A model generated the notes under the pieces. The model was given only the letters and a program-made list of their open reading frames with translations. It made no database searches and was not told where the DNA came from. From IMG/VR virus record IMGVR_UViG_3300042691_007361, positions 42,796 through 106,795 of that record: DNA of 64,000 nt; one strand, 5' to 3'. Positions 14,201 through 31,915 of the stretch are shown here, one piece after another. The DNA is from a virus. The translations under genes were made by a program, and so were the position numbers. Position 1 is the stretch's first letter. Each line of letters begins with the position of its first letter.

Positions 14201-14256
14201 CCATATATATTTTCTAATGCCTTAAACTCTTTAAGACTTCTGACAATACACTTCAT
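8251..14256 (-). CDS. giant virion/ejection protein with zincin-like HExxH motif, LysM domain and C-terminal hydrophobic segment
   Basis: 2001 aa. LVLHEYAH...EE (13483-13497); LysM HVYQVGDSLESVAKKYNLTVEDLMKKNDI...GDELII; hydrophobic GIYLAMMGLAVGFIFG. Confidence 0.75.
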   Translation of the reverse strand: MKCIVRSLKEFKALENIYGTDLAEKFVHDYSVVVRKVGPNDEYYYPTPKEVKDWLTNDKQKVRQNVMKAFEVNPFLTDRAIQSLLSGVIHPLKGKYYVTRGFTNYGSIVEQKAAEELIFKPNVAIVEALADKFPSVISLSRSERKAYTVEVVIKPLADRIKTTEEQDEEEVNDFNENFAADPETQKKEKAKEIAVRLGDKFAKAFGVPYTMISAAEATRVLENTTTPYEGEAAFYYNDTVYFVGDKLSTELVLHEYAHPLVKGIAKMNPGLFDKLYYQLRTSATGVKLIENVVVNYPNLEFESDRFKEEVIVNALEKAAMNKVNEQTETEEGFKQFIQNILFAIKKLIKELVGKVNLDKLSVDTTLDDLANMMVNEDFQIDNVVFSETDFAEFKKDISSIVSQFQKVEDGKLQKAINNVYAENMYELDQLSKSPKRLKDLLESREGIKFLRYIAEDLRPYQTVSDDPTKVKPENAISAMKDQQEEFRLRTLALVNSIAHIEVFVENIDKALGKISGDPRKIKTEEITKVMYFKDFLIRQKKLVEDVRVAVGLNKETDFVKTLNGINTSVNDAIRKINDIEQEFAGQYFEKKGASMGKEIDEKFKADITKALKADNISTDAINDFIDSVVNAPLMREFNLDNAGLSLDIKRKPYIAKLVQQYNDKRLTREQYDAFLKGERGDIGYIAANLIPIKNIDDPVIGTFARDISIELSNTELELLRERDQIASKLDPLLRQAGYNENNVAALGKQLLLLDKDGYTDSKTGEWVEYERFTYHDKFKNWRYDYGKLKNEYENAKDKKDKTLVKEAYKNLIDFEKKYMHRPMVDEYYEKFNIWTQDNKLINPFTKSEVVVNADTSFQAYLERAAAIEKMNTLQNIKYEDRDDMLEATAADEAKMEYESLYDVYYPDGTQKTGEALEKALVMKHYRSVSRKFMTGEPDVDSLQRELDNYVDKLAAKGITMEEKPDVFNEELERFFRKNMRVAYSDKYVETRRDIIAQIRQITDKPGLKSEIAKRRAELIEERYDIIGKTTDKNRQVNGIQLTEEQRKRVKEIEVELVNLEAQFDKKSGLSLEDAEKLKTYQDRINNGPALSESERQEYDDLINIKNDMGLGPLELEKLRVLFRDLSELSYKEPTDYYIAAINYALRGTGIDDVTIDNADEFINSPKILEARTKSEAFDQWFIQNHYTKEVWDPAIKQKAIKVFRTSAWTVAKPIGLENYKTTKLVHPITGKEIIRYAVPGGKYNKVVPKPEYVTPKIVGVTVDNRNNYLPKEYTPGKKDSAYDNKYMNQEYYDLKKLNSPTYKLLEELKKEYLRVQDDKGFGSKLYYDYANFFHRSNLEMVQSGKARENVEDKLSSAKTLGQRFFGKEKTADAAEWMFNYNAEATAIGTDLLGNPLTRIPVRGLYRLKKQDVSMDFLRSFYDYMESLTVQKKLSEIEPIAKLISDVLNNSENAIKDMNRISKQIKKSTGMLSFIPTGDNKRAKAFDEFLERTFYGKVNAEFNEKNVRVTKLANALMGNTSRSFIALDMVSAAKNRYGMLFQSMIEAAGAEYITAKSLALGKYRAYTATIQLMTKGIYTHGPKSLDIQMMEYFDPITGKTKKDFSKSASRSFLKDMLDMTWMYDARKLAEVEAGLEVFWGMMYNKYIDQTDSAGNIQKIRYSDAFELDDKGMIKLKDGIDPEYGVQSINHVYQVGDSLESVAKKYNLTVEDLMKKNDIEDPADVKEGDELIISENALFNDFKLKVQGVGKRLNGLIDQLDTPLASKYLGFRLFTFYRLFSLPMFVHRFQFDTSKENFGGEVYDFNMNTLTKGYYISGLQLMWRTVKTMGKYYPMASDKEKAAFRRMLAEGIYLAMMGLAVGFIFGYDDDDEDRFNKLRKREKDWGAMGYFSNHLLYQLMAVKSENELLVPIVGFDDFMNFINPASLASGPIIGNTLKIMADLFHMATGDDSAIYKQDVGPYFWQEEGDYKLWNHIGGIFGVRGKNYDPIHAIKSRETFQNLN

Positions 14257-17200
14257 TATAGCTTACAATTTTTTAGGTGTTCAATATACTGTTCCTCTGA
14301 CATAGTATCAGCATACATTTCAAAATATGATTCAATCACATCATCTAAGTTACCAAGTTTTTGCTGTTGTTCAGCAGTCAGGGTATTATAAAAATCATCC
14401 AACATACTATAGTTACCTACTGATATTGCTGAGAAATCAAACCCGGATTCTTGAGCTGTGTTAATAGCATTCTTGTATGTATCAGGAATGTATTCAAACT
14501 CTATCTGCCATGCCTTATCAAGTTTTGGTCTTACTACTTTATTAAAGTAATCAGTTGACCATCCTTCAAGTTGTGACCATTGACTAGCTGTCTTACCACT
14601 ACCTACTAATTTGTGTAGAGGCTTAGTCACTTTTACTTTAAGAGAGTCACCGTTATCAGATACCCACTCAATAATATCACCTGTCTTAGCTTTCTTCCAA
14701 TAATCAAATCCTTTTTGATCTGAGTATCTTGTTGTAGCAGTTCTTTCTCCAAGAGCCACTGCTGCAATTGTGCTATCTGCAGTAACACCAGGACGTTTGT
14801 TATCACCATAAGAGAAGGACATCTTACCTTTGAATGATAAAGGTTGAGTAAGTTGGTTACTCATTGGCTTAAGGAACTCATTGAAGTTCTTTCTTGACTT
14901 AGCATATTTATCTGCTAGATCATTCATCTCTTCACCAGAGTGACCTTTAACCCAAGTAATCTTAACTGAACCACCATTAGCTTCAATCTTAGCAATTGCT
15001 GCTACTGCTTTATCAATCAAGTACTGAATATAAGGTTCTTTTGACTTCCATGGTTTGTCTGCACGTTGAAGTGATCCTTCTGAATGTTGCCATAGACCAT
15101 TGTAGTTAACAGCTCCGTTATAATCTTGATGGATAAACAAATGCTCCCCGGTATCTTGGAATGTTTCAAGTACTGTACTTAGTGCTAACATCTCCATTGT
15201 AGGATTACTAAACTTAGCGTTAGGGAATTTAGCTTGTAAATCTTTTACTGCTTCACCTTCTTGAGTACCTGAGAGACCAAACTCTTTATCTTGATACTTA
15301 TATACTGCACCAAATCCAATGTTACCTGTTCCTTTGATATCTGAACCATCAGAATATACTCTTATTGGTTCTTGTACTGTAGACATCTTAGCTGTTTTGT
15401 TTTCTTTAGCCTCTACTTTCTCTTCTTCAAAGAGGCTAAGTTGTTGATTATCACCCATATCCTTCTCTAATATTTCTGGTGATTCCTCAACTTCTGGAGC
15501 TTTTATATTGTTATCAACCCATAGACTAAACTCTGAGATATTCACAGGTTGATCCGTTGAGAAATCATGGAACAAGTTACTCAATTTATCAACATTAACA
15601 CCTGCCGTAGCCAGTCTATCTAGTATAATATTTAAACTTTGGTATGTGACATCTACATAATCATCATAGTCATCAGAGTATAGTTTTTGAAGATCAACAT
15701 TTTCTGGCACATCAATAATGGTTAGATCCGGATTTAAATCTTTAACCATTTGGTTAAACTCATTCTCTCCTAATTCATTAACAAGATTATCTATTGCTGT
15801 TCTTGTAGAAATTGTTTCTTCAAGTGGGAATGCAGTAACTTGATTTGAGTTAAATACTTTTGGTTCTACAACATAGTTTTTGAACTGTGAGTCACTCATC
15901 AAATTATTGTACACTTTAGATAAGCTAGCAGGGTTTAGATTATTTTGCATGAATGTACCAGCAGCACTACGCATTACTTCTAGATACATTGTATCATCAA
16001 GCGCTTTGTTGAATCCATATTTAGTATAACCTACACCATGTTGGTGGATCATCATTAGTGAGAAGATACGGAAGACATCACTTAGTCTTTTGTTATCTGC
16101 TTCTGATGATACCTTACGTACATTAACATCAGCTAACTCTCTAAGGTTCTGGAAATAAACATCACCTAGTTCTCCCTTAAGAATATTTCTATCATTAAGC
16201 TGAACTATCTTCTCTTTACCTTTATATGGTAATACAGATATCTGCCCAAGGATTGGATATCTATCTTTAAGTTGGGAGAACTCTCGGATAGTATTCATTA
16301 CCAAGTTAGTGTAAGAGAATTCATCTGTACCTACAATTGCATCTCTATTGAAAGTGTTTAATAGAGCACGTTGAGCTAAGAACTTTTCAAAGGCTGGAGT
16401 ATAGCTTTCACCTTCTGTATATATACTTCTTAGGTACTCTCTTTCAACTACATATCTATTAAAGGAAGCTTGAGATCTAAATGGGTCATCAGATACTTTG
16501 AAAGAGGTCAACCCTCTCTTAGTAAAGCTATCATTAGAGTCTGATGTTTTTAAATATTTTTTGTCAGTAAAGTCCCTGTTAAGCTGACCACGATCTACAT
16601 AAATAACTCCATCTTTATACTCAACTCCATTCTGAACTCCGGGCTTAATTACTATCTGTGAGCCTCTGTAATAGTCAGGTAATTCTGATATATTACCTTT
16701 AGAGTCAACAAAGTTAGACATGTAGTTTTGGAAGATGTAGTTAATCACAGCGTTATTAAACTCTGATGTAAATCTTTCCTCACCGTCCATACCCTGACCA
16801 AACTTTCTAGATATCTCAGTTTTGTTACCACCTAGTTTACTAGTAATAAAGTCTGATACTTCTTTGTTTAATCTTAATGGCATTACAGGTTCTACAAGAT
16901 CAAGAGCTAAGTCTCCTTGATAGAATGACCTAAGAATAGATTTGTTTCTGATTGCTTCTGGTAATTCAGGATCTACTTTAGATGTTTCTGTTGAATCAAG
17001 GAATGCTTGTTCTCTCTTTCTTACTTGCTGTATTGTCTTTAACAGTTTAGTATCTGGGTTAGACTGGCGTTTTACTGCCTCTAGACCCTTAATCTGTTTT
17101 TCTATTTCTAAGAAGTGTAAGAATGCTGCGTCCTGAATAGCTTTGTACTTAGGATTCTTTGGATCCTTGATGCTAGCTATTAGTGTTTCTTCATCAAAGT

Positions 17201-20200
17201 AACCTTTGTCATTAAGAATTCCAGGCTCGGATGTAGCAAGAACTGCAGCATCATATGCTGTGTCATTAGTTACAAGTGAACCAAATCTCTTATATAATAA
17301 GTTTTTCTTACTTACTTCTGCTCCTCTGTATATACTAACCACTTTTGCTGGTGTAGTTATGCCTTTTTGAATCGCAGTCTTCAAGTTTTTAACTAGAGTT
17401 ACTTGTGGTGCATTATCACCATCTAGAACTACAGAGATTGTATCATTATCACCAACCTTAGCTATTGCTCTGCTGTATGCGTTCTCATTTATCTGTTTAA
17501 GATATAATGCTCTTCTTTGATAAGGTATTCTTTTCTCAATTCTATTAGCGGCTTTGAACTTAGTAAAAGTAGCTTGAGGGATTTCTTTAGTAGCTAGTGT
17601 AGAGAATGTACTCTTAAGTAGCTTTTGATTACTTCCATACTCACGGATTGTAGGCTGAGATACAAATGCAATTGCTGTCTTCTCAGGTACTCCTGCTTCT
17701 AGTAAGTAGTTAAGGATGCTGATTGTTTCTAGGTTAGCTTGAATAAAGAATGCCCATGGATCTTTCTCAACATCAAGAAGACCATTCATGATATGAGAGT
17801 ATACGTCAGCAATTCTAGTACCTGCTACATTAACATTATTAGACAAAGAAATATGTCCGTCTATCTCAGCATGCGGTAGAAGTAATCTTGTTTCATAATC
17901 TCTCTCACCATCTACATACTTACCAGAGTTCTCATCAAAGAATGATTCTTTGTAAGTCTTAGGCATCTTAGCACCAATAGATTTAAAGATTGGGTGTTTC
18001 TTGTTTTGTAGAGCTTCAATACCTAGGGTATCTTTACCTACCATGTTTACATCATGCTTATGCAAGTTGTAACCTACTTCCAGAATACGGGTAGGGCTGA
18101 TAGCTTTTTTTCTTTTGCCACTATCATCAGCCGGACCCATTCTCTGTTCCTCACCATGCATATTCTTGTATCTGTTATACTCAATAACATATGGTTCAAA
18201 TTCATCTGCTGTACCTTTTACAAGGTGAGTTTCATTTGGACGTACAAGTGATGCAAAGTTTCCTGGAGTTGCCAATATATCTTTAGTAGCCTGGATCAAT
18301 TCATTCTCAAGTGCCTTCTTCTGTTTTTGAATTAGAGCTTTAGGACTTGGTTTTTTCATTCCAGGTTTTGGTTTGATCTTTTTAAGATCATCAATCTTTT
18401 GTTTTAACTCCTCATTGCTGATAGCTCCTGTTGCATACTCACCTTGTGTATTAATGTGAGGCATCATCCAGAAGATTTTATCAACGTCAAAGTCAGATCC
18501 TGCCTTAGCTACAATCTCTGTAGGTACAACAACTTTATTTCCTGCTGCTGGATCTAAGAAATGCCATACTTCACCAAACTCCATTGAGTTTAAGTTCTGA
18601 ATTGGAATACGTGCACCAGCAAGAGTAATTGCTTTACGGTTGTTACCAGTATCTAACCACTCATCATCTTTGATAGCTTCGTTTAGTCTACTGATATTAC
18701 CAATCTCTTCTCCTTTATATTGTAACTTAAGTAAGTTAACAAAGTCACCTTGAAGAGCAATAGCAATCTTCATTGCATTAGTCCCATCTTTACCTGGGTG
18801 ATATGAAGGAAGGTTGTTACTACCTAGATATTTCTTTTTATCTTTTTCTGAAGCTTTATCAAACTGTACTGTCTGATCCCAGAGACCATTGTACATTGTA
18901 CTTGGTACTTGTACTAATGCTTCTCCTTTTACCTTTTGTCTGATAAGTCTTTTAGTAAGTACAGACAATAGCATACGCTCAATAGTATCTGCTTCTAGGT
19001 GAAGTGATAAGTCAGTCTTTATGTTACCATTAAAGTCTACACCAATAGATCTTAACAAGTGATCTGGAATATCTCTTTTACCTAGTTCTTTTTGAATAAG
19101 CTCTAGGAAGTTCTTGATATTACCAATGTATTTACCATTCTTTTGCTCGTATCCAATCTCTTCAAGTATCTCTAACTTAAGTAAGTTAGTATACTGAGCA
19201 ACAACATCATCATACTTAGTTGCTAGTTTATCAAACTCAGGCTTAGTAATTGCTCCTTTATCAAATAATCCATCAAGGATTAATCCACGCAACTGAGTAG
19301 GGAAAGTAACTATTGTTTTGTATTTAGCATTGATATTAGTTACACTCTTAAGATACTCTAAGTAAATTGTATTCGGTGTAAGAGTAAGTTCTTTCTTAAG
19401 TTCTTTCTGTGTATCATCTGCAAAGATTACATCTGCTTTTCCATTAGATGTAACATTACCAACTTTAGAACCTGATTCATATGTTAGATACTGAATGTTG
19501 TTTCTCATCATCTCTTTATGAAGATGTTCTAATTGAGAACCAGCAATCTCACTAGGAATCAGCGGCATCAATGCAAACTTATGGAAAGATGTCAATGGCA
19601 AATCTGTATTTGCTAATGGTCCAAAGTTCTGTAACTTATATACCGGGAAGTAGTTAACTACATCAGATGCTTTTATAGGAACTTTATTTATTATTTTCTT
19701 GTAAAGCTCTTCTTGTTTATTACTCCATGCATTTTCTAGCTTCTTAAGTGTACGGTATGCATCAATACCAATTACACCTGCACCATCAGCCTCATTCATT
19801 TCTTTATAAGGCTTAAGTTCTTTTTCTAGTAGGTCATTTATCTGAGCTTCAGATTTACCATTTAGTTTATACTCTGCTCTAAGACCAGCTTCTATATCCT
19901 TAAGATAAACAGACGGGCGCTCAACATCTTTGACTACAGCAGTATTAAAAGTACCATCATAGTGAAACTTGTTGTAGTCATCATTCTTTTCTTCAGCGGC
20001 TACCTTAGATGCATATGTAACTCTCTCAATTATATTACCATCATCATCTACTCTATCTTTATTCCAGATATTATTAATGAAGTCTTGAGCCATTACATCA
20101 GTAAGGAACTTAGGTCCACCTGAAGTAGAACCTGTGTTACGCTTATGCATCTCTTCTTTAAGGTGATTGTACTGAGCCATATCACCATAGAATAGATTAA

Positions 20201-23200
20201 TAGTTTCAAAGTTATGTATCCAGGAGTTGTACGTATATGATTTTACAATAGCAGCTTTTTGCTCAACCTCATTAAGGTCATTAGGTCCAAGCTTATCAAA
20301 TAGAGATTGATCAATATACTCTTGTACACCAAGGAAAGATAAGTTATCTGCAGTTTGTTCACCAAAGTAATTAATCATATCATTAATTACCTTTTGTTTT
20401 AGACCTGTTCTATCAGTTCTTAAGAAGTCTTCAAGTGTACCTCCGCTTTCTTTGATAGCATTCATTACTTCTTCTGAAAGTAATTCTTTTTTAGTATCTT
20501 CAGAAAGTACATTATCAAATGATGTTAGTACCTCACCGGCATATATCTTTTCACCATTCTCTCCTCTAGCAACTACTTTGTTATATCCACCATATTTCAG
20601 AAACTCATCCTTATTATCTTTGAATTTCATTATACGTTCATACTCAGCACCTAGATAAGGAATTAGTATGTTATTGATAGCATAGATATCTCCACCACCG
20701 TTGGGTGTAAACATTGACATGTCTACATAAAGATTTTTGTCTTCTCCTTTACCTGGATAAGATACAACACCACCATCTACTTTTACTCCAAATGATGATT
20801 TCTTAGATGCATGGCGGATGAATTCCTGTATACCACCTTTTAACATAAGGTGCATCTCTTGTAGGAACTTACTATAGATATCTAATGATGTTGTGGTAGT
20901 ACCAATATCTTCATTGGCAATCTGAGTACCAGCATCAATAAATAGTTTTAAAGAGCGCCCCTTGATTTTATCACCGTTTCCTTCAGTAGAGAAGATACTA
21001 TTGAGGATCTGAGATCTATTGTTATTTACAAATGAGTTAATCTTAGGATTAAGATAAGACATGTATTTAAACGGATTCTCTGCTGCTGTAGGATTAGAGT
21101 AAAGCTCTTTGATATTGTTTACTCTGTTTATAGCATCAACCTGACGGCTGATAGAGTGATCATCAATAAATTCATTAACAAGATTCTTCTCCGGGTTGAG
21201 CACAGAAAAATTAGATCCCTCCAAACCATATCTCATCTGAAGTTCTGCTAATCTCTTTACAATATTTTTTTGGTATACCTCTTTTACTTTCAAACCTGGA
21301 AGAATAGTGCCAGGTATTTTAGCTTGGAAAGTAGTAAGTGGATTAACTACAAAGTCACCAAGAACAGATATTGCTGCTTGACTAGCTGTAGTTCCTTTAG
21401 CTTGGATATTAGCTAAGTCTTTTACAATAGTGTATAGATACTGTAAACCATAGTAGTCTACATTATCCTTAAGTCTATCCTTTATAACTTTAAGATCATC
21501 AAAGATAAAACCAATAGCTCTGGCAAATTCAAATGATTTATTTACATCTAATTCATTTGGTCTTCTCTTATCTGCAAAGTCAGATACAAGTTTGCTTAAA
21601 TCATTTAGAGTAGTTACATTTTCTACTTTAGTGATGTATGGATTATCTCTTTCTGATTGAGCTTTGAACTCCGCCTGAAACTTCCTAATAACATTACTTG
21701 CATCAATTGATGCATCAGTCACCTCAACACTTACTTTATCTACTGTAAGTTTACCTGTCATATAATCATATGATTTATCCAGGTATCCAGTTAACTGCAT
21801 ATAAGGCACTCTCGGTCTTGAGAATGTCTGCCATATAGATGCAAGTACATCAAACTCTGCACTCCTCTCAATCCTTTGTGGATTAGGAAGTTTACTGTAA
21901 ACAAGTTGCTGTAACTCTGGTGAGTATGTTTGAGCTGCTTTCTCTAGCTTCTCATACATCAGGTTAATATCTTTAACTCCACCAATCTCTCTAGTGATAA
22001 TCTTCCATATCTTGGAGAAGTCTGCTAACTGATTAAAGCCTAGCTTGTTAGGTACAACTTCTCCTTTTTCTTTTTTGAATAGACTCTTGATTACATAGAT
22101 AGCTTCTTTTTGAGCAAGTTGTTCTAATGACTTCTTACCTACTTCACCTGTTTTTACAATTGAATCAGATGATCCTTCAGCACTAGTTTCATCAACTGGT
22201 TCTCCGTCTGCATCTTTTTCTTCATATGACTCTTCTGTATAATCCTCACGGATAATGTCAAAGCGGCTATTCTCCTTATGGTATTTAACTACACCTTTCT
22301 TATCATCACCCCAGTTATCTAATGTAACTTGTAAAAGTCTGATTTTATCAAGAAGTTCTTCTTGTTCAAACGTCAATGGTTTGTACTGAGGTCCTTCTTT
22401 TATAATAAGATCTGTTATACTAGTTGCACCACCGCGCTTGTAATTATCAAATTGTACTTGTGCATCTCTAAGATCTTTAACAATAATGATATCAGCTTGA
22501 TCATTATCCTCAGACTTAATAGTTTTATGAGAATAGAAATCAGCTACTATATCTATACCATAGTAGGATTGACCTTTAATTCTTTCTCCTCCTTTAGTAT
22601 CTGGATTAAGATTTTCAAAATTGTCAATTTGATTTGCAAGGAACACGTACTTGTTGTCTCCTTTTTTGCTTTTAAATATGGCTGCTGCATTGCTTTCTAA
22701 TTCACCTATGGTTTCTAATGCACTAAAAGGAGTTAAGGTAATACTACCTAATTCATCTTGGAACTCCTTAAGTTTATCTTGGAATATCTCTTTTACTGAC
22801 TCATATGCTACTGCACGGTTTTCAGGGTCAGTAAGCAATTTAATTGTAGAAGACTTTTTACCAAAGCCCTCATTAAGAGAATCCACAAGTCCAGAGATAA
22901 CTGAATCAATTGACTCATTGATTAGTATTGAATCTTGTCTACTTAGAGCATCTTCTCCTCTAGCATCAACTCTTTCAATACCACGGTTTAACATATCCCA
23001 CATAACATTATCAATGCTAGGTGAATATGTATTCATAAATATTTTACTTGCTTTTTTACTTGACCCAGCAAAGTATAGCTTATTGAATAACTCAGAAGCA
23101 GTTGCAGGATAGTCTTGATTAGCTACTGAAGCTTTGTCTACAACAACTTGTGCTGAACCTACTTTACCAAACAGAGCCTTAAGGAAGTCAAGTATCTTTC

Positions 23201-26063
23201 TAAAGATAGATTTCTTAACAGGAGTATCTTTCATTTCCTGTTTTGGATTCTTAGCAAAAGATCTAAAGTCTTCAGCTAGCATCTCTTCTATCTCTAGGTA
23301 TGATTTATTAAGATAAGGCTTATTACCTTTCTTATCAGTATAGTTTCTTACCTCATTGTATAGGCTAGTCTTCTGATCATTGGTTAGATAAAGCTGAGAG
23401 AATGCATGCCATGCTTCATGGTATACATCAACCATTGTTCCTTTGTTGATTTGAATCTTACCAAGTGTATCACCAGATAACAATGTCTGACCTGATACTA
23501 CAAAGCGCGCATATACATCTGAGTTAACTAGGTTAGCTGCGTGATCAATACCAATCAATCCTTTAAGTGGATTGAACTTACTATTCCACCAATTATTAGC
23601 TTCTTCTACCTGAGCTTTTGTAGCATCATTAGGTAAGTAACCTGCACGGTCAAGACCTTTCCAGTTCTTATTTAAAAGATTAGCTGTATTAGTATTCTTG
23701 TTTGTTGGCGTAACTGGATTTTGATTTTGCTCAATATCTTCAATAACAGGAGATACAGGTGTCTTATCTTCATCAGTTGGAACTTCAATCTCTAGTTCTT
23801 CAGCCTCTTCTGGTACTGCTGGTTGACTATATTCACTTACATCTTTCTCAGCAATAACACCAATATAATCTCCTGTAGATCCATCTTTGTTTACTTTAAA
23901 GATTTCAACTACATCCTTATATGTTACACCGTCTGCAACTAATTCATCTCTAACCTTGAGTCTAACAGCTTCACCTTCTGTAGGGAAGTTTGTGTCTTTG
24001 TAACTCTTATCACCTTTAGTAATAATAAGAGTCTTGTTAGGATAGTATGCTTTTGCTTCTGCATCTGCACCTGGTACATCTACTTGGTAGTTAGCATAGA
24101 ACTTACCCATATAGAAACCTGACTTAGGTGACTTTGCTGTAGCATCTAATTCTCCTGCTTCTTTTACTAAATCAACAATCTGATCTTTAAGCTTCTTAGT
24201 TTCAGTTCTGTTATCTTGAGATACTTTGTCTTTAGCCTGTTGGATAATTGTATTAGTTTTATTCGGTGCTGCAAAGAAGATATAACTATTAACAGAGTCC
24301 TTGTTTACATCTCTAAGGTTAATTGTTGCAGGAAGAGTTTTTAAATAATCAATATAATTTCCAAATGTAAGTCTCTTTGTATCAGCATTATACACAAAGT
24401 AACGTTCATTCTTTAAAAGATCACTGTTAAATGTCATCTTTGAAGGAAACATTTTATCCTTTCTGCCTTTACCAGACATTAACACATCATAGATCTTCTT
24501 TTCATATGATGCTAACTGATCATCAGAAAGTGCTTCTACAACTACTTGAGAAAGATCAATTGTATTATCTAGAAACTTACGTGATTGATTTTGTTGGAAA
24601 GTCTCATTAGAATAATTAAAGTAGAACTCCTGATTAGGAATATTTGTAGAAGTGCTATGTCTTCTTGCTCTATAGTCAATCTTGTTATTAAAGAACTGAT
24701 AATAGAAATCTGTTCTTACTTTGAATGGTAAGTTTCTATCTGTTAATACTTTAGATACTTGTTTTGCTACATCATCAGTAGTATCTGGTCTATCTATTAC
24801 AACTTCAGTACCGTTAATAGTAATTGTAGCATATCCTTTCTTGAATCCTGCTCTATCTTTCTGTACTGTCTTGATGCTTTTAAATACTTGCTTATCAATG
24901 TCAGCCTTCTTAGAAAGGTCAGAAAGAAGAATTGTTTTTCCTACTAGACCCTCAAGAACACCTGGGCTTATACCAGATATAGGTAATGTTATCTCTTCTT
25001 TATTGTTTAGGACTCTTTCTTTGATATTATATAGAAGAGCCATTTCATTTTGTTGCTCTTGTGCTATACTATTAATTACTGCTGGATCATTTGTTTTATA
25101 CAATGACATTGCAATTTCTGCAGGAGAAAGAACAGACTGATATCCATAGATATTGGATACACTGTACTTACCATTCTCTAATCTTGTATCTCTTAAAAAC
25201 TGATATACAAGTTTACCTCCATCAGCTTTAGTACTTATATCTCCATTTTCTGAGAAGTAGACAAACTTACCATCTCCATCAGTCATCACTAATAGTACTT
25301 GCTCATCTGCAGGTGTTACACCCTCAGCAGTTTTAGCAGTCTTCTTAATTGACTTTGACCGGATGATGATATTTTTAGTATAGTTATCTAGCTCATCTTG
25401 ATTAATAGATGTAAGCTGAACAGCTTTAAGCTTTAAAGTTGTACCTTGGTATACTAAACTATCTGCTGCAGAATCAACACCATCAGTCTCAGTCTGAATC
25501 TTATTCAGAGTATTATAGATAGTTCTTTTAGACTCATCAAGAGTTTCAATAAACATATCTACTCTAGTAGGGTCAGCTGCAATTAGTTCTTGGGATGTAC
25601 CACTTAGTGACGTATATGGTCTAAAGCGCTCAGAAGGATAGTAAAAAGTACCCTCTGGGTCCATCTCTTCAGTATTACCTGCTTCACCCTTTAATGTATT
25701 TACATAAGCTCTAAGAAACTTTTTTGATGTTTCCTTATATGTATTGATTACATTATTGATACCGTTGTCAACATCTAAGTATGAACGCCCTAGCTCAGCT
25801 AGAGAGTTTAAATCTAACTTTGTAAAGCTTGGGTTCTGAATAAAGTCTGTGTTGTACAGATCAATAATCATACGTGGTACATGCTGAATTAATTTAGCAG
25901 CAGTTTCAGGAGTTGAAGCTTGAGCTTTATTACCATATACATAAGCCATATAGTCTGCAGGAGAAAACGGTTCAGCTCCCTCCTTTAATGAATCAGACAT
26001 ATGTTTGTATATACTCTTATATAATTTTTCTACTGTTGTACTAGATAAGGCACAATTGATCAT
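14256..26063 (-). CDS. giant virion-type two-barrel DNA-dependent RNA polymerase with zincin, RNase H and ASCH domains
   Basis: 3935 aa. ARIP followed by the catalytic AGSDFDVDK loop (DFDVD at 18480-18494); EADGAG and FHK motifs; VYHEAWH...EEMLAE; C-terminal YSDGS...WVKGH...NDLAD. The position matches the crAss-like RNAP cluster. Confidence 0.85.
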   Translation of the reverse strand: MINCALSSTTVEKLYKSIYKHMSDSLKEGAEPFSPADYMAYVYGNKAQASTPETAAKLIQHVPRMIIDLYNTDFIQNPSFTKLDLNSLAELGRSYLDVDNGINNVINTYKETSKKFLRAYVNTLKGEAGNTEEMDPEGTFYYPSERFRPYTSLSGTSQELIAADPTRVDMFIETLDESKRTIYNTLNKIQTETDGVDSAADSLVYQGTTLKLKAVQLTSINQDELDNYTKNIIIRSKSIKKTAKTAEGVTPADEQVLLVMTDGDGKFVYFSENGDISTKADGGKLVYQFLRDTRLENGKYSVSNIYGYQSVLSPAEIAMSLYKTNDPAVINSIAQEQQNEMALLYNIKERVLNNKEEITLPISGISPGVLEGLVGKTILLSDLSKKADIDKQVFKSIKTVQKDRAGFKKGYATITINGTEVVIDRPDTTDDVAKQVSKVLTDRNLPFKVRTDFYYQFFNNKIDYRARRHSTSTNIPNQEFYFNYSNETFQQNQSRKFLDNTIDLSQVVVEALSDDQLASYEKKIYDVLMSGKGRKDKMFPSKMTFNSDLLKNERYFVYNADTKRLTFGNYIDYLKTLPATINLRDVNKDSVNSYIFFAAPNKTNTIIQQAKDKVSQDNRTETKKLKDQIVDLVKEAGELDATAKSPKSGFYMGKFYANYQVDVPGADAEAKAYYPNKTLIITKGDKSYKDTNFPTEGEAVRLKVRDELVADGVTYKDVVEIFKVNKDGSTGDYIGVIAEKDVSEYSQPAVPEEAEELEIEVPTDEDKTPVSPVIEDIEQNQNPVTPTNKNTNTANLLNKNWKGLDRAGYLPNDATKAQVEEANNWWNSKFNPLKGLIGIDHAANLVNSDVYARFVVSGQTLLSGDTLGKIQINKGTMVDVYHEAWHAFSQLYLTNDQKTSLYNEVRNYTDKKGNKPYLNKSYLEIEEMLAEDFRSFAKNPKQEMKDTPVKKSIFRKILDFLKALFGKVGSAQVVVDKASVANQDYPATASELFNKLYFAGSSKKASKIFMNTYSPSIDNVMWDMLNRGIERVDARGEDALSRQDSILINESIDSVISGLVDSLNEGFGKKSSTIKLLTDPENRAVAYESVKEIFQDKLKEFQDELGSITLTPFSALETIGELESNAAAIFKSKKGDNKYVFLANQIDNFENLNPDTKGGERIKGQSYYGIDIVADFYSHKTIKSEDNDQADIIIVKDLRDAQVQFDNYKRGGATSITDLIIKEGPQYKPLTFEQEELLDKIRLLQVTLDNWGDDKKGVVKYHKENSRFDIIREDYTEESYEEKDADGEPVDETSAEGSSDSIVKTGEVGKKSLEQLAQKEAIYVIKSLFKKEKGEVVPNKLGFNQLADFSKIWKIITREIGGVKDINLMYEKLEKAAQTYSPELQQLVYSKLPNPQRIERSAEFDVLASIWQTFSRPRVPYMQLTGYLDKSYDYMTGKLTVDKVSVEVTDASIDASNVIRKFQAEFKAQSERDNPYITKVENVTTLNDLSKLVSDFADKRRPNELDVNKSFEFARAIGFIFDDLKVIKDRLKDNVDYYGLQYLYTIVKDLANIQAKGTTASQAAISVLGDFVVNPLTTFQAKIPGTILPGLKVKEVYQKNIVKRLAELQMRYGLEGSNFSVLNPEKNLVNEFIDDHSISRQVDAINRVNNIKELYSNPTAAENPFKYMSYLNPKINSFVNNNRSQILNSIFSTEGNGDKIKGRSLKLFIDAGTQIANEDIGTTTTSLDIYSKFLQEMHLMLKGGIQEFIRHASKKSSFGVKVDGGVVSYPGKGEDKNLYVDMSMFTPNGGGDIYAINNILIPYLGAEYERIMKFKDNKDEFLKYGGYNKVVARGENGEKIYAGEVLTSFDNVLSEDTKKELLSEEVMNAIKESGGTLEDFLRTDRTGLKQKVINDMINYFGEQTADNLSFLGVQEYIDQSLFDKLGPNDLNEVEQKAAIVKSYTYNSWIHNFETINLFYGDMAQYNHLKEEMHKRNTGSTSGGPKFLTDVMAQDFINNIWNKDRVDDDGNIIERVTYASKVAAEEKNDDYNKFHYDGTFNTAVVKDVERPSVYLKDIEAGLRAEYKLNGKSEAQINDLLEKELKPYKEMNEADGAGVIGIDAYRTLKKLENAWSNKQEELYKKIINKVPIKASDVVNYFPVYKLQNFGPLANTDLPLTSFHKFALMPLIPSEIAGSQLEHLHKEMMRNNIQYLTYESGSKVGNVTSNGKADVIFADDTQKELKKELTLTPNTIYLEYLKSVTNINAKYKTIVTFPTQLRGLILDGLFDKGAITKPEFDKLATKYDDVVAQYTNLLKLEILEEIGYEQKNGKYIGNIKNFLELIQKELGKRDIPDHLLRSIGVDFNGNIKTDLSLHLEADTIERMLLSVLTKRLIRQKVKGEALVQVPSTMYNGLWDQTVQFDKASEKDKKKYLGSNNLPSYHPGKDGTNAMKIAIALQGDFVNLLKLQYKGEEIGNISRLNEAIKDDEWLDTGNNRKAITLAGARIPIQNLNSMEFGEVWHFLDPAAGNKVVVPTEIVAKAGSDFDVDKIFWMMPHINTQGEYATGAISNEELKQKIDDLKKIKPKPGMKKPSPKALIQKQKKALENELIQATKDILATPGNFASLVRPNETHLVKGTADEFEPYVIEYNRYKNMHGEEQRMGPADDSGKRKKAISPTRILEVGYNLHKHDVNMVGKDTLGIEALQNKKHPIFKSIGAKMPKTYKESFFDENSGKYVDGERDYETRLLLPHAEIDGHISLSNNVNVAGTRIADVYSHIMNGLLDVEKDPWAFFIQANLETISILNYLLEAGVPEKTAIAFVSQPTIREYGSNQKLLKSTFSTLATKEIPQATFTKFKAANRIEKRIPYQRRALYLKQINENAYSRAIAKVGDNDTISVVLDGDNAPQVTLVKNLKTAIQKGITTPAKVVSIYRGAEVSKKNLLYKRFGSLVTNDTAYDAAVLATSEPGILNDKGYFDEETLIASIKDPKNPKYKAIQDAAFLHFLEIEKQIKGLEAVKRQSNPDTKLLKTIQQVRKREQAFLDSTETSKVDPELPEAIRNKSILRSFYQGDLALDLVEPVMPLRLNKEVSDFITSKLGGNKTEISRKFGQGMDGEERFTSEFNNAVINYIFQNYMSNFVDSKGNISELPDYYRGSQIVIKPGVQNGVEYKDGVIYVDRGQLNRDFTDKKYLKTSDSNDSFTKRGLTSFKVSDDPFRSQASFNRYVVEREYLRSIYTEGESYTPAFEKFLAQRALLNTFNRDAIVGTDEFSYTNLVMNTIREFSQLKDRYPILGQISVLPYKGKEKIVQLNDRNILKGELGDVYFQNLRELADVNVRKVSSEADNKRLSDVFRIFSLMMIHQHGVGYTKYGFNKALDDTMYLEVMRSAAGTFMQNNLNPASLSKVYNNLMSDSQFKNYVVEPKVFNSNQVTAFPLEETISTRTAIDNLVNELGENEFNQMVKDLNPDLTIIDVPENVDLQKLYSDDYDDYVDVTYQSLNIILDRLATAGVNVDKLSNLFHDFSTDQPVNISEFSLWVDNNIKAPEVEESPEILEKDMGDNQQLSLFEEEKVEAKENKTAKMSTVQEPIRVYSDGSDIKGTGNIGFGAVYKYQDKEFGLSGTQEGEAVKDLQAKFPNAKFSNPTMEMLALSTVLETFQDTGEHLFIHQDYNGAVNYNGLWQHSEGSLQRADKPWKSKEPYIQYLIDKAVAAIAKIEANGGSVKITWVKGHSGEEMNDLADKYAKSRKNFNEFLKPMSNQLTQPLSFKGKMSFSYGDNKRPGVTADSTIAAVALGERTATTRYSDQKGFDYWKKAKTGDIIEWVSDNGDSLKVKVTKPLHKLVGSGKTASQWSQLEGWSTDYFNKVVRPKLDKAWQIEFEYIPDTYKNAINTAQESGFDFSAISVGNYSMLDDFYNTLTAEQQQKLGNLDDVIESYFEMYADTMSEEQYIEHLKNCKL

Positions 26064-26074
26064 AATAAAATGTT

Positions 26075-29000
26075 TTAACAGTCAGAGGTTACGTCTTCAA
26101 ATAGTTCAGTATCTACAGCATCAGTAAGTTGTTTGTCTGCTTCTTTCTTAAGAGCATCTTTTCTATCTGAACTTTTAAGTAGATTGTTGATGTTTTCAAA
26201 TGATTCTTCCATAAAGTCTTTTTCATCTTTTGTCAATGGAGCTCCCTCATCTTCTGAACCTTCTGTTTTCATAACCTCTTGTTTTAATATAAACATTTTA
26301 TTTAACTCTGCAAAGTTAAATGTGACTGGGACTGATGGTACTGTTGTAGTATTTACATCAGCAAACTGAGCAACCTTATCAATAGATTTAATGGATACAA
26401 TGTCACCCTCTGCTATAGCAAGCTTGTTATTAACAAATATAGGATTAATTGCGACAAGTTGGTCACCTACTTTGACATTCTCAGGTGTAAGTTTTACTGC
26501 TACTCCACTATCTAATTGCCTCTGTCTTTCATTGATAAGTTCCTGTACTGCCGTTACACTTTCTACAGAGATATTATTCTTAGCAATAGCCTGTGCAAAG
26601 TCAGACTTGAATAGGTCTAATACTTCTTGTGTAGCCTCAGCAATAGGTTTTCTTAATGTATCAATGTCCAGATCAATAACTGGTTCTTCTTGTGGTACCT
26701 GTATGTCACTATCTTCTGCCGGAATGTTACCTCCAGTAAAGTCTTCATTTTGAGCAGGTCCTGTCTCTTCAGTTTCTGGCGCAGCTTTAATCTTTCTTGG
26801 AATAACAGAGTCAATTTTTTCCTGGATATCAGGTGTTATCTCAAGTGGTATTCTGTATTTACCATCCTCTAATGCACCTTTAGCAGTTGGTTTACCTGCT
26901 CTAGTTATTCTACCTGTGTTAGCCTCATAGTCTATTTGAATCGGTAATAGACTGACCTTAGCTTGTTTATCAGTAAGATTGTAAAGAAGATTAGCATATG
27001 CTGTTTGTTGTAATGTATAGATTTCTTTTTTGGAAGATTGATTACCTTCTACATTGAATCCTCTCCATTTAACTTCTTTACCAGTCTTAGTATCAATGAT
27101 GTACACATTACCAAGTCTATCTACAGCAAGTAAGTCAACTTCACCAGCTACTCCTGCCTCTTCATCATAAAGAACAAGACCTCTTTCTGTACCATCATTG
27201 AGTACAACTCTTGATAATACATAAAGACCTTCTTCATCTACTAGTCTTTTTATGTTTCTGAGGTAGCCAAGGCTCTCTGGGTCTTCATTAAATAAAGCAT
27301 CATATGCTTCTCTAGTAATTTTAGTATCATCAAACTTAGGCTCTTTGTCAGCAAACAAGTCACGGACTTGATCATCAATATAGTTACCTGAGATTCTAGA
27401 TTCTTCATAAGTCTTCTCAGCAATTGTATTCATGACCTTATTAATTAGGTCTTCATTTGATGCAGACGGAGCTTCACTCAACATAGTATTGAGCTCATTC
27501 TGTAACTCATTGTATGTAAAGTCACTAAATCCAGGAAGCTTCTGCTTTCTCAATTCAGTGATGAAGTTACTTATTGATGACTCATTAAATCCTTGCTCAG
27601 CTATTGTAGTATTGAAAGTAGCTTTAACATCACCTTCAGCTTGATACTTATATTCTTCTGTCTCAAACTTTCTAATGACTTGAGTTACTCTCTGCATTAT
27701 CTGGTTGTTAATCAAATAACCACCTTTACCTTTAGTGATATCATTTTGGAAATCAATAATAGGTTGTATTAAATCAATAGTTTTTCTTTGGGCTTCACTG
27801 AATCCCTCTCTTACTTTACCAGATAGATAATCATTTATCTTTCTAATACTATATGCAAGTCTTGCGGATCTTTGTTTTATATCAGGAGTTTGTTCTTCTT
27901 TAGCAAGAGAATCTAATTCAGTCTGATATGTTTTAAGTATTGATCTTAACTGAGCTTCAGGTATCTCATTGATCTTCATTGTTTTATCACCAACTTTGAT
28001 CATCGGTACCTCTGGTTCTCTAACCATTGCTTTACCAAGCTCCTGTTCTTTATTATAATCATCAACTAATCTAGCTGCAACAAAACTACTTTTTAAGAAT
28101 GAGTCTAATGCCATATCAAAATCATCTCCTGATAAATCAGTAAGACCATTTTCATCAGCATATTCTTCAAAAGCAAGAACTATTCTATTATACAAATCTG
28201 GTGGAAACTCATCCATATCCATATCTGTTGTATAGATAACCCTTTCTTTTACCTCACCTGGATTCTCTACACCTTTTTCAGCAGCTGATTGAAGTATGTC
28301 TGCTTTCTTTTCTGCAAACTCATCCATGATTTCTTTAACAGCATCTGGATCCGGTTCAGTAACCATAACAAACTTAGTTGCTTCTGCAAAAGAATCAGAT
28401 GTGCCAAGTTCTTTTAATGATTCTGGTGTAACTTCTTCACCATCTTTATCATTGAATCTTAATACCTCACCGTCTTTGTAGAAAGTAAGTGGTGTGCCAT
28501 CTTTACCAACTACATCTACATACTCTTTGTCTCCAAGTTGCTCAGAGATATTTTTAGATTTGATTGTCTCCTTGCCTTTAAAGTCAAGTGACCCTTGGTC
28601 TTCCCTCTTCTCATTCTTAGGTAATACATCTATTCTAGCTTGCATTTCAGCATCAAGCTTGTCAAGATCTTCTCTTACTGACTCTTCAACAATCTCCATT
28701 TCATTCTTAACTGTCTGAAGATTATTCAGCATCAAGAATGGTCTGATGATCTCATCATACATTGGGTGAGACTTACGGATAACTACTTTATGAACATCAT
28801 CATAGATCTCATCTGGTAGTATCTTCATTTCTCTCCATCTTTCAAAGTCATCTAGACTAATGTAAAGACCTTGGCTAGCTAAGTGATTAAGTAAGTCATT
28901 ACCTTCTTTCTTCTGGAACTCTTGCTCTTTAAGATTCTCATAGTATTCTCTACGGTTATCATAAAGCTCTTTCATCCAAACTTTGTTGCGCTTAACATGC

Positions 29001-31915
29001 TCTACAAATCCTTTAGGGTCATGAAGCAGGTTAATACCTCTTACCATTCCCTGAGCCTCTTTGCTTAGCAAATAGAAGTCACGAAGTTTTTCAAATGCCT
29101 CATCTATATCACTATCAAATAAGTTATCATCATTAATGGATGCAAGTGACTTTAAGTATTCTCTGAATGTAGACTCAAGTTCCTCATTGAACTTAATGTC
29201 ATTATCATCATTGCGGATACCCAATTCATTATCAATCATCTTAAGAACTTCTTCTTCTGAAGCATCTTTGTTATCATTAATAATTCTTTGTGCTATTTCA
29301 CTTCTGTCAACATAGTATCTCTTAAAGCTGGTGATACCATCATCTAGTTTTTTTAATACCTCAAGTCTTCTTTTCTTTTTAGCTAACTCTTTTGGATCAG
29401 CTTTAGTTGACTCAAGTGTATCAACTTCAGTTTTTAATATCTCAGCTTCATTAGATAAAAGAGCTTGATCAAACAATACTTTCATATCATTGAATGATGC
29501 TTTTTTAAGCAAGCCTGAGCTTGTTACATCATTAATAATACTAGACATACGTTTAGTAGTGTTATCAAAAGACTCATTAAAGAATATAGCATTTCTCTTT
29601 GCTTCTTCCCATGCATGATATGTCAATGAAGCATCTTCATAGTCTGGGTCTCCTTTTTTATAGTTACTTATGTTAACTGGATTTGGAAATCTATCGTTTA
29701 TATCATTAAACTTCTTCTCCATTTTCTGAGCCCTATCAATTACTTCAGGTAGTTTATCAAGATACTCTTGACCTTTACCTGCAGGAATTCCAGGAACCAT
29801 CTCTTCAAACTCTTCAGCAGTAAGCTGTTGTAAACCTTTTAATTGGTCTGTGTAGTAATCCATCATTCCCTTATCAAGTATAACTTGCATTTGAGAAATG
29901 AATGCTGCATCAGATGCATCTCTTGCTACCTTTTCAGAAGCAGTTACTTTAAGGTCTGTTGCAGAAGCTTGAACACCATAGTTCTTTAAGTTATTATCAA
30001 AGAAGTCTTTTAGATCTACACTAGATAAAGTATTAACCATTTGCTGACCATATTTTGTTCTGGCCATTTTATATTTAGTGTAAGCATCATTATCAAAGAT
30101 TCTATTATAACCAATAGAAAATGCTTGTGGTAATGCGTTTAATGGAGAAGCAAACATACCCATAGTAAAACCAGAAGCAAAAGTTTCCAAACCTCTAGCT
30201 GAGAACTGATCTTTAACAGCATTCTTAACTAGACCTCTAGCATACTGATGTGTTGCTACATTGGGATTACTATATGAATCAATGTAATAATTCTTTGTAG
30301 CATCAGAAATAACTTCCTGTAAATTCTCTTGTAATGCTTCACCTATATTTGCTTTAAAGTATGCAGCACCAGCAGGAATAGATTTACTTAATGGTCTTTG
30401 AGCAAAACCTTTTACAGTATTCCAAAGATTCTTTTCTCTCCATTCAAGCTTTGATGTATTAACAGTCTTACCTGTTTTAAGAGTTGTCTTCTTATTTATT
30501 TTAAGAATATCACCTCCATCAAGATTTAGTAAATCCTCAGTTTTGGATTTAAGAAAGTTTGCTATACCTCCTCTACGGTTAACAAGGTTAGGAAGTACAA
30601 GTTTATTTGATGCATATATAAGACCAGTGTTCCATATTAAATCAGTCATACCTGCTTCTTTAGCTTGAAGCATCATTCTTTCTTGAGTCTTATTATCTGG
30701 TGCTTCTTGCTCATCTCTATAATAATCATCATAGAGTTTATTATATGTGTCATTCTCAGCCATACCACCTTCTAGTCTAGCTTCTGACAATGCCATGTTA
30801 ACTGCTCTTACATCACCGTAAAATCCACCAAATGTTTTCTTAGTTGCATCATATGCTCTTGCTAGTCCTGTAAGATTATCCTCATTCTTAGCAATTTTAA
30901 TTCCTGCTTCTGTAAGGTTAGAAAGAGGATTAAAGAACTTAAAGGTATTACTACTCACAGTCTTTTCTACTCTAGCTGCATTCCAAAAGCTTCTTGCACC
31001 ACTAACAGACTTTAATCCATTTAGTGTAGCATTCATAGCTTTCATACCATCAATAGCATTTTCAGCAGTGTTTAAACCTCTTAGAATGCTTGGTATTTTT
31101 CTAGCGTTGTTTGCTGTAGTAGCAAATAAAGCTGGGGCACCACCCCCAGCAGTAGCTACTGTAAATGCAGCAGCCGCAGCTTCTTCAGCCAAAGCTTCAG
31201 TAATAACACCTGCTGTATAAGCAAATGCCATTCCTGTATTATTTAACCATGCACCTACACCACCTCTTGAGGAGTAACCAATAGCTGATTGCTCAGCGCT
31301 CATCATTGCAGCCTCTTTATCAGGACTGAAATCTCCTTGAAGCATTTTACCTAAACTCTGTGGAGCTGACTTAAATGCTTGTGTAAACATTGGCCAGAAT
31401 GAATGAACCATCATTCTTTTAGCATCTGCCCAACCTGATGTACCTGCATTATAAATAGATTCATTATCACGGAAAGGGTGAAAGCCTAATTTATTAAAGG
31501 TCTCATCTCCCATCTTAGAATATCTCTTATAGAATGACCCACCGTCTGGTCCAGCATCATAAGAATATATTCTTGCATATTCATTCTTGTCTTGATTAGC
31601 TGCAGCTTTAGCTGAGTAAAAATCACCTATTGCTTTTGAAAAATCTTTTGCAGATAACTTTGAAGGATTTGCTTTAGCTCCTGGTTTACCAACTATGTCT
31701 TTACGTACAGTAGTTTGCTGATTATCTAATTGACCTGCACTAGGTATAATAGGAATAAAGTTTGTACCTCTATCAGGGAAATTAATTTCAGGTCTTGTAA
31801 TCCTGTCTCCCTCAAAAGCAGATAAACCCTGCTCATCAAGAGAGGGTTGGTTTATCTTTCCGTAAGCTGGCCCAAGTGAGTCAAGTGGGCTAAATGATTC
31901 ATTAGTATCCGCCAT
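26075..31915 (-). CDS. giant virion/ejection protein with C-terminal PD-(D/E)xK nuclease-like domain
   Basis: 1946 aa. Ala/Gly hydrophobic stretch near aa 220-270; GVAGEVDLLAVD-IIDTKTG-YTLQQTAY nuclease signature. Confidence 0.75.
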   Translation of the reverse strand: MADTNESFSPLDSLGPAYGKINQPSLDEQGLSAFEGDRITRPEINFPDRGTNFIPIIPSAGQLDNQQTTVRKDIVGKPGAKANPSKLSAKDFSKAIGDFYSAKAAANQDKNEYARIYSYDAGPDGGSFYKRYSKMGDETFNKLGFHPFRDNESIYNAGTSGWADAKRMMVHSFWPMFTQAFKSAPQSLGKMLQGDFSPDKEAAMMSAEQSAIGYSSRGGVGAWLNNTGMAFAYTAGVITEALAEEAAAAAFTVATAGGGAPALFATTANNARKIPSILRGLNTAENAIDGMKAMNATLNGLKSVSGARSFWNAARVEKTVSSNTFKFFNPLSNLTEAGIKIAKNEDNLTGLARAYDATKKTFGGFYGDVRAVNMALSEARLEGGMAENDTYNKLYDDYYRDEQEAPDNKTQERMMLQAKEAGMTDLIWNTGLIYASNKLVLPNLVNRRGGIANFLKSKTEDLLNLDGGDILKINKKTTLKTGKTVNTSKLEWREKNLWNTVKGFAQRPLSKSIPAGAAYFKANIGEALQENLQEVISDATKNYYIDSYSNPNVATHQYARGLVKNAVKDQFSARGLETFASGFTMGMFASPLNALPQAFSIGYNRIFDNDAYTKYKMARTKYGQQMVNTLSSVDLKDFFDNNLKNYGVQASATDLKVTASEKVARDASDAAFISQMQVILDKGMMDYYTDQLKGLQQLTAEEFEEMVPGIPAGKGQEYLDKLPEVIDRAQKMEKKFNDINDRFPNPVNISNYKKGDPDYEDASLTYHAWEEAKRNAIFFNESFDNTTKRMSSIINDVTSSGLLKKASFNDMKVLFDQALLSNEAEILKTEVDTLESTKADPKELAKKKRRLEVLKKLDDGITSFKRYYVDRSEIAQRIINDNKDASEEEVLKMIDNELGIRNDDNDIKFNEELESTFREYLKSLASINDDNLFDSDIDEAFEKLRDFYLLSKEAQGMVRGINLLHDPKGFVEHVKRNKVWMKELYDNRREYYENLKEQEFQKKEGNDLLNHLASQGLYISLDDFERWREMKILPDEIYDDVHKVVIRKSHPMYDEIIRPFLMLNNLQTVKNEMEIVEESVREDLDKLDAEMQARIDVLPKNEKREDQGSLDFKGKETIKSKNISEQLGDKEYVDVVGKDGTPLTFYKDGEVLRFNDKDGEEVTPESLKELGTSDSFAEATKFVMVTEPDPDAVKEIMDEFAEKKADILQSAAEKGVENPGEVKERVIYTTDMDMDEFPPDLYNRIVLAFEEYADENGLTDLSGDDFDMALDSFLKSSFVAARLVDDYNKEQELGKAMVREPEVPMIKVGDKTMKINEIPEAQLRSILKTYQTELDSLAKEEQTPDIKQRSARLAYSIRKINDYLSGKVREGFSEAQRKTIDLIQPIIDFQNDITKGKGGYLINNQIMQRVTQVIRKFETEEYKYQAEGDVKATFNTTIAEQGFNESSISNFITELRKQKLPGFSDFTYNELQNELNTMLSEAPSASNEDLINKVMNTIAEKTYEESRISGNYIDDQVRDLFADKEPKFDDTKITREAYDALFNEDPESLGYLRNIKRLVDEEGLYVLSRVVLNDGTERGLVLYDEEAGVAGEVDLLAVDRLGNVYIIDTKTGKEVKWRGFNVEGNQSSKKEIYTLQQTAYANLLYNLTDKQAKVSLLPIQIDYEANTGRITRAGKPTAKGALEDGKYRIPLEITPDIQEKIDSVIPRKIKAAPETEETGPAQNEDFTGGNIPAEDSDIQVPQEEPVIDLDIDTLRKPIAEATQEVLDLFKSDFAQAIAKNNISVESVTAVQELINERQRQLDSGVAVKLTPENVKVGDQLVAINPIFVNNKLAIAEGDIVSIKSIDKVAQFADVNTTTVPSVPVTFNFAELNKMFILKQEVMKTEGSEDEGAPLTKDEKDFMEESFENINNLLKSSDRKDALKKEADKQLTDAVDTELFEDVTSDC

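Follow-up and report, generated by a model that had tools for sequence, protein, structure and literature searches.

Our analysis of a 64,000-nucleotide stretch of virus DNA (the window; positions 42,796 to 106,795 of IMG/VR record IMGVR_UViG_3300042691_007361, a virus genome of 106,795 bases with a completeness estimate of 89%) revealed a variable slot near the C-terminus of a predicted crAss-type virion RNA polymerase of 3935 amino acids (aa), encoded on the minus strand. The slot is occupied here by an RNase HI domain followed by a domain of ASCH fold, and its contents are gained, lost and reordered rapidly among close relatives. We conclude that the two domains are probably independent, swappable effector modules of a polyvalent, injected polymerase, and not a dedicated device for clearing R-loops.

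A variable slot before the polymerase tail

BLAST comparisons of the C-termini defined the limits of the slot. In the cassette-free relative P0257, the residues matching aa 3535 and aa 3883 are no more than 10 positions apart, and since cassette-free relatives join ~3535 to ~3883, the RNase H and ASCH modules, which are separated by a 10-aa spacer, represent a 347-aa insert before a conserved tail. This tail is kept in relatives regardless of how the slot is filled. The 120 nearest relatives were then picked by the polymerase core alone (core identity at least 49%). The N-terminus, zincin region, core and body are common to all 120; the length of the C-terminal extension varies between 6 and 1629 aa, and RNase H was found in 10 of these proteins and an ASCH-like domain in 16. 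The slot of other relatives is empty or holds DUF7831, NADAR, ASCH with AlkB-like, HD or helicase modules, or unassigned sequence.

When the polymerase body was analysed by maximum likelihood (39 rows, a quick tree search, with support only from the Shimodaira–Hasegawa-like approximate likelihood ratio test, SH-aLRT), the RNase H+ASCH proteins fell into a single clade (100% support) with P0014, which has lost ASCH, nested inside it, and P0009 and P0010 formed a separate branch with the module order reversed. The sister proteins P0254 and P0255, joined by branch lengths of 0.07–0.09, carry ASCH plus an AlkB-like module and DUF7831, respectively, in the slot. A survey of homologous polymerase C-termini had been proposed in an earlier note on this DNA as a way of recognising a swappable cassette, and the variation of the slot content among relatives bears that suspicion out. 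Literature searches returned no description of the polymerase slot or of swappable crAss-type polymerase cassettes.

The wider distribution of the two domains showed the same freedom of arrangement. The last 396 aa, used as a query against giant proteins, returned 201 matches, for which segment mapping indicated identities of 53–69% for RNase H and 50–67% for the ASCH-like domain, as against just 21–36% for the polymerase cores. Both domains occur singly, at N-terminal, internal or C-terminal positions, and in more distant giant proteins both are found on either side of the polymerase core and in either order. Among 181 giant proteins, 106 combined the polymerase with ASCH only, 38 with RNase H only and 15 with both, the distance between the two being 10–20 aa in 11 of these 15 co-occurrences. 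An obligate RNase H–ASCH pair was considered and dropped because each domain mostly stands without the other. Within 80 aa, the neighbours of the ASCH-like domain were NADAR (13), AlkB-like (13), RNase H (12), cpYpsA (10) and DUF7831 (4) modules, and those of RNase H included NADAR (8) and also AlkB-like modules.

Several unrelated enzymatic modules per giant phage protein, shuffled among relatives, are the mark of the polyvalent proteins described by Iyer et al. (2017, PMC5512222), with which the polymerase shares the giant multi-domain form, the ART-PolyVal and Kinase-PolyVal Pfam families (present in its homologues) and a proposed logic of delivery with the DNA and early action. It differs from them in that the modules are confined to one defined slot between the polymerase body and a conserved tail, and crAss-type polymerases are absent from the main text of Iyer et al., as are RNase H, ASCH, NADAR, AlkB and YpsA modules. 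The cassette contains no Cys, like the rest of the giant polymerase proteins, a composition that would fit modules adapted to travel within a cargo protein.

The RNase H and ASCH-fold domains

The RNase H domain was recognised by Pfam PF00075 (RNase_H; aa 3567–3723, window 14895–15365, E 8e-12, 42–45.9 bits against a cut-off of 25.8), by PHROG 531 'RNase H' (E 6e-19) and by NCBIfam ribonuclease HI (4e-7, under its equivalog cut-off). Residues D10, E48, D70, H124 and D134 of E. coli RNase HI align to D3572, E3624, D3647, H3708 and D3718, which sit in the motifs YSDGS, TMEM, HQDY, KGH and NDLAD and are 97–100% conserved in 65 related domains; a basic segment (R3667, K3670, W3672, K3675) is likewise conserved where the E. 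coli enzyme has its substrate-binding protrusion. In a model of aa 3440–3935, the domain had a predicted local distance difference test (pLDDT) score of 91–97, and Foldseek returned E. coli RNase HI as the top PDB match (E 4e-8). Judged by sequence and model, it is a type 1 RNase H with a complete predicted active site. Notwithstanding the shared active-site residues, fold and basic segment, it differs from the E. coli enzyme in its low identity (~22%), in an insert of ~12 aa before the helix with the catalytic Glu, in the absence of Cys and in being one domain of a 3935-aa protein. RNase HI also exists in phages as a separate protein, for example 'putative Ribonuclease HI [uncultured marine phage]', at 42–62% identity to the domain.

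The following domain (aa 3741–3860) was not named by the profile libraries Pfam, PHROG and NCBIfam, and no Pfam ASCH match with E<1 was obtained in this protein; its assignment comes from its modelled fold. An AlphaFold model built on an alignment of 24 short relatives reached a pLDDT of 94.8, and the first places in Foldseek were taken by ASCH proteins (EF3133, YqfB, PH0355 and a Lactobacillus ASCH). VIA-align against representatives likewise ranked ASCH proteins in all of the top seven places (Z 8.0–9.9), with E. coli YqfB as the best (Z 9.9, root-mean-square deviation 3.0 Å, 96 of 102 residues), followed by EVE, YTH, modification-sensing restriction-enzyme and other PUA-like domains (Z 5–6). 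Pfam ASCH (PF04266) was the commonest sub-threshold match in the family, appearing in 8 of 25 members (best E 0.0079), and the family profile searched against PDB sequences gave chance-level matches only, with no ASCH chain among them. The octapeptide was aligned to that of YqfB by hhalign (probability just 5.7%), a second segment of the alignment pairing WSQLEGW with HAEQENM, and hmmsearch of the family profile against YqfB alone scored 9.9 bits; these two comparisons serve for residue correspondence only and not for homology.

YqfB is an ASCH N4-acetylcytidine amidohydrolase (PDB 9KYF) in which Thr24 is the nucleophile, Lys21 the general base and Glu74 the acid, with Arg26 in the oxyanion hole (PMC6972931). 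Thr24, Arg26 and Glu74 correspond to T3777, R3779 and E3833, whereas Lys21 is replaced by R3774 and His70 by W3829. All of these positions are 97–100% conserved in 191 domains, which argues for a working site, and in the same set G, R, T and R of the octapeptide are 97–99% conserved and the Lys position is Arg in 98%. The family motif GxRxxTxR therefore keeps the Gly, Thr and Arg of the ASCH octapeptide GxKxx(T/E)xR and departs from it at the Lys, so that of the YqfB-type Thr-Lys-Glu triad only Thr and Glu have equivalents. Identity to YqfB is 18%, and the present module is known from sequence and a model. The family also has an N-terminal strand of its own (aa 3748–3757, GKMSFSYGDNKR) with the pattern GKMxFxYG, in which Met3748 is 98% and Tyr3752 92% conserved and whose counterpart is absent from YqfB.

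Every motif quoted in the earlier note was located in the translation of the minus-strand open reading frame (ORF) at 14256–26063. Its RNase H domain with intact catalytic positions was confirmed by Pfam, PHROG 531, the E. coli RNase HI alignment and the fold. Its ASCH-like domain stands as a fold, supported by AlphaFold, Foldseek and VIA-align; because Arg replaces the catalytic Lys, it is not to be taken for a standard ASCH/YqfB enzyme. Profile searches, on which the note had made both domains depend, placed RNase H above the cut-off and the ASCH domain at no match above it.

An exhaustive HMMER search of 1.84 billion representatives gave 280 clusters (50% identity) with the ASCH-like family, most matches sitting within proteins of 2000–6400 aa. 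Among 185,579 prokaryote species, each represented by one genome, the family was found at five loci only, all on contigs of metagenome-assembled genomes. The ASCH-like family is essentially viral. ESM Atlas scores were below 0.9, and one viral cluster there with Pfam ASCH on 33% of its members was taken as a lead only. The two halves of the domain are in reverse order in some giant proteins, the C-terminal one (EGWS...IEYE) preceding the N-terminal one (GERTATTR...), and these look like circularly permuted or partly duplicated ASCH-like domains. In the 6386-aa protein cr272_1 (L001:5600-7000), the domain is apparently nested between the halves of a SLOG- or DUF7831-like domain, with a CxxxCxxC motif upstream of it; in-frame stops occur in its reading frame and would fit stop-codon recoding.

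The polymerase and its genomic setting

A phmmer search of PDB sequences with the full-length protein gave no match, and the polymerase structure of phi14:2 gp66 (6VR4) was found only when a 1200-aa slice was used (aa 1901–3100, E 2.7e-22). In this alignment GSDFDVDK pairs with GSDFDIDK of 6VR4, so that the motif at aa 2524 has the DFDxD form of the gp66 family, with Ile or Val in fourth place, inside the homologous core. Annotated Crassvirales polymerases were matched by tblastn at 21–28% identity. The region around the zincin-like HEAWH motif is kept in 172–174 related giant proteins, and a Pfam scan of the protein gave no peptidase match for it. Because of the 6VR4 match, the Crassvirales matches and the HEAWH motif, the ORF is, on sequence grounds, a crAss-type virion polymerase that has diverged strongly and carries a fused zincin-like region at its N-terminus, in agreement with the crAss-like identity given in the earlier note; fusion of neighbouring proteins in some phages has already been remarked by Drobysheva et al. 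The acidic linker described between polymerase and cassette was also recovered (aa 3440–3560, Asp+Glu 22–26%) and was modelled at low confidence (pLDDT 31–70).

The polymerase and gp66 have in common the homologous core with its DFD(I/V)D motif, a setting among three giant genes read in the same direction (g067-g066-g065 in phi14:2) and a Cys beside the C-terminal end (QECK in gp66, NCKL here). They differ in that gp66 has 2180 aa and is without RNase H or ASCH, core identity being ~24%, whereas the polymerase studied here has the extra N-terminal HExxH region and the cassette before the tail. No family was assigned by PHROGs to the polymerase part or to most of the neighbouring proteins tested, and megablast of the polymerase gene against the phage collection gave no match. 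When the last 700 aa were compared with that collection by tblastn, only the ASCH part was matched, in two Suoliviridae giant proteins.

The minus strand of the window carries three giant co-directional ORFs in tandem (1946, 3935 and 2001 aa), of which the polymerase is the middle one (Table 1), and an identical architecture was present in the homologues P0003–P0008 from ENA, JGI and Logan assemblies. The stop codon of the polymerase gene overlaps the start codon of the next, 2001-aa gene, which suggests translational coupling of the two genes. The 1946-aa upstream protein (26075–31915) showed a weak match to PHROG 298 'exonuclease' over aa 1534–1651 (E 5e-9), and no match was found in PHROGs for the 2001-aa downstream protein. 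Just four Cys occur across the three giant proteins (7882 aa in total), each no more than 4 residues from a terminus. Full-length relatives of the polymerase showed a Cys within the first 8 residues in 101 of 118 and within the last 8 in 116 of 118, with a median of 0 internal Cys.

Table 1. Features of the polymerase gene and its cassette, with positions in the window unless another locus is named
Feature	Position	Strand	Basis or detail
crAss-type virion RNA polymerase polyvalent protein, 3935 aa	14256..26063	(-)	one unbroken ORF
Zincin-like motif HEAWH (HExxH), aa 882-886	23406..23420	(-)	
RNA polymerase catalytic core, aa 2036-2540, homologous to phi14:2 gp66	18444..19958	(-)	phmmer, tblastn
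DFDVD motif	18480-18494	(-)	
Acidic low-confidence linker, polymerase body to cassette, aa 3440-3559	15387..15746	(-)	
Inserted cassette (variable slot), aa 3536-3882	14418..15458	(-)	BLAST of C-termini, tree
RNase HI domain, aa 3560-3730	14874..15386	(-)	five catalytic residues, see text
ASCH-fold domain, virus-specific new subfamily, aa 3741-3860	14484..14843	(-)	AlphaFold, Foldseek, VIA-align
Octapeptide GERTATTR, aa 3772-3779	14727..14750	(-)	aligned to YqfB GRKTITIR, Lys21 to Arg
Helical C-terminal tail, aa 3885-3935, ending NCKL	14259..14411	(-)	four helices, pLDDT 82-96
TAATG overlap, polymerase stop / start of 2001-aa gene	14254..14258	(-)	
Terminal Cys of the giant proteins	14265-14267 (Cys3933), 26052-26054 (Cys4), 26075-26080, 14248-14250		first two in the polymerase
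Reversed-halves ASCH-like domains	L002:5700-6300 (cr114_1)		also P0178, P0180, P0193, P0210, P0214, P0227, P0232, P0235

Proposed effector modules and the competing explanations

According to the explanation we favour, the hypervariable slot between the polymerase body and the Cys-ending helical tail would hold two separately folded modules that are carried into the cell together with the polymerase, as suggested by gp66 and the proteins next to it in phi14:2 and crAss001; homologous proteins are virion cargo in both phi14:2 (Drobysheva preprint) and crAss001 (atlas, PMC10172136). Once inside, each module would work on its own during the first minutes of infection: RNase H would cut the RNA in RNA:DNA hybrids, and the ASCH module would remove an acyl-type group from, or otherwise process, a modified base resembling cytosine, in either RNA or DNA. 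Counter-defence or repair would be the most likely use of both, beside the NADAR, AlkB-like and SLOG slot modules of relatives. Effector modules are preferred over a transcription helper because RNase H is rare among close polymerase relatives, because the position of both modules is free and because their neighbours are enzymes reversing nucleic-acid modifications.

Several considerations weigh against this explanation. Packaging of the polymerase of this uncultured phage is inferred by analogy with phi14:2 and crAss001, and the continued attachment of the cassette and the activity of either domain are likewise presumed steps. The preference of gp66-type enzymes for single-stranded templates leaves some weight to a connection of RNase H with transcription. 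The substitution of R3774 for the Lys may mean another chemistry, another substrate or a binding-only role, because Lys-to-Ala or Lys-to-Leu abolishes the activity of every ASCH enzyme tested. Finally, the gap in identity between the domains and the cores (50–69% versus 21–36%) could in part reflect fast evolution of the polymerase and not recent transfer.

Service to the polymerase itself, with RNase H clearing RNA:DNA hybrids or R-loops to free the template and ASCH helping to bind nucleic acid, has some attraction, in that polymerases of the crAss type use single-stranded DNA as a template, on which long hybrids or R-loops could remain, the basic segment at the substrate-binding protrusion is conserved, the two domains lie 10–20 aa apart in most of their co-occurrences, and a phage RNase H with such a role has been reported: Rhc, the RNase H-clamp of Goslar (Chimalliviridae), supports transcription, apparently by resolving R-loops (bioRxiv 10.64898/2026.10.01.755736). 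Rhc, however, is not carried in the virion and is not joined to an RNA polymerase, and only 10 of the 120 nearest polymerases carry RNase H, its place relative to the core varies, ASCH stands alone in 106 polymerase-bearing proteins as compared with 15 that have both, and cleavage of hybrids would destroy the freshly made transcript. We regard a helper role as unlikely. Of the two functions offered in the earlier note, a transcriptase that clears its own R-loops thus fits poorly with an RNase H that is so infrequent, lies on either side of the core and adjoins NADAR and AlkB-like modules; counter-defence cargo agrees better with the module pattern, the retrons and other RT-based defences that the note gave as targets being guesses. 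Still less probable, and indeed very doubtful, is that the RNase H removes or processes primers as a housekeeping enzyme of replication, fused by chance in this lineage and with no role as injected cargo. Stand-alone phage RNase HI proteins akin to the domain do exist, but its location is that of effector-type modules in relatives, it lacks Cys as the cargo protein does, and it recurs in more than 60 giant polymerase proteins.

For the ASCH-like domain, a non-enzymatic reader of a modified base or RNA in the manner of EVE, YTH or PUA-like domains, which would target or anchor the polyvalent protein, would account for the Arg at the position of the Lys essential to ASCH hydrolases, and EVE, YTH and modification-sensing restriction-enzyme domains do come next in the fold lists. 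The near-invariance of Thr3777, Arg3779 and Glu3833, the equivalents of the YqfB nucleophile, oxyanion Arg and acid, and the seven best structural matches, all ASCH proteins with YqfB first, make a pure reader an improbable alternative. An assembly or frameshift artefact, which the earlier note had named as a way in which its reading could fail, has next to no probability: in an independent freshwater sample one 18.4-kb contig covers 13900–16300, and with it all junctions, with 27 substitutions and no gaps, the stretch is present in runs from freshwater and lake metagenomes of 17 studies, and the architecture is common to homologues from three data sources. The sole indel in four runs was an in-frame 3-nt deletion at 15440 in the acidic linker (one lake-water assembly), which fits a loosely constrained spacer. 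No RNA run was among the public runs listed as holding the stretch.

A more specific form of the effector-module explanation would make the GxRxxTxR ASCH a virion-delivered eraser of an acyl-type defence mark on cytosine, in incoming phage DNA or in RNA, with RNase H destroying defence RNA guides or templates paired with phage DNA. This is speculative, and we hold it to be rather unlikely in all its parts; if true, the slot would record, module by module, the nucleic-acid-modifying defences of freshwater Bacteroidota-type hosts. The ASCH module belongs to a large, strongly conserved virus-only family whose active site is unlike that of every ASCH enzyme studied, so that its substrate is a directly testable question, and both modules are small (~120 and ~170 aa) with confident models, alone or with few contacts, which makes them easy targets for expression and assay.

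The crAss-like phages are among the most abundant viruses known, and no other phage enzyme acts in the cell before their injected polymerase. A slot on this protein that exchanges its content more quickly than the polymerase itself diverges would catalogue the tools of the first minutes of infection and the host defences that they answer.

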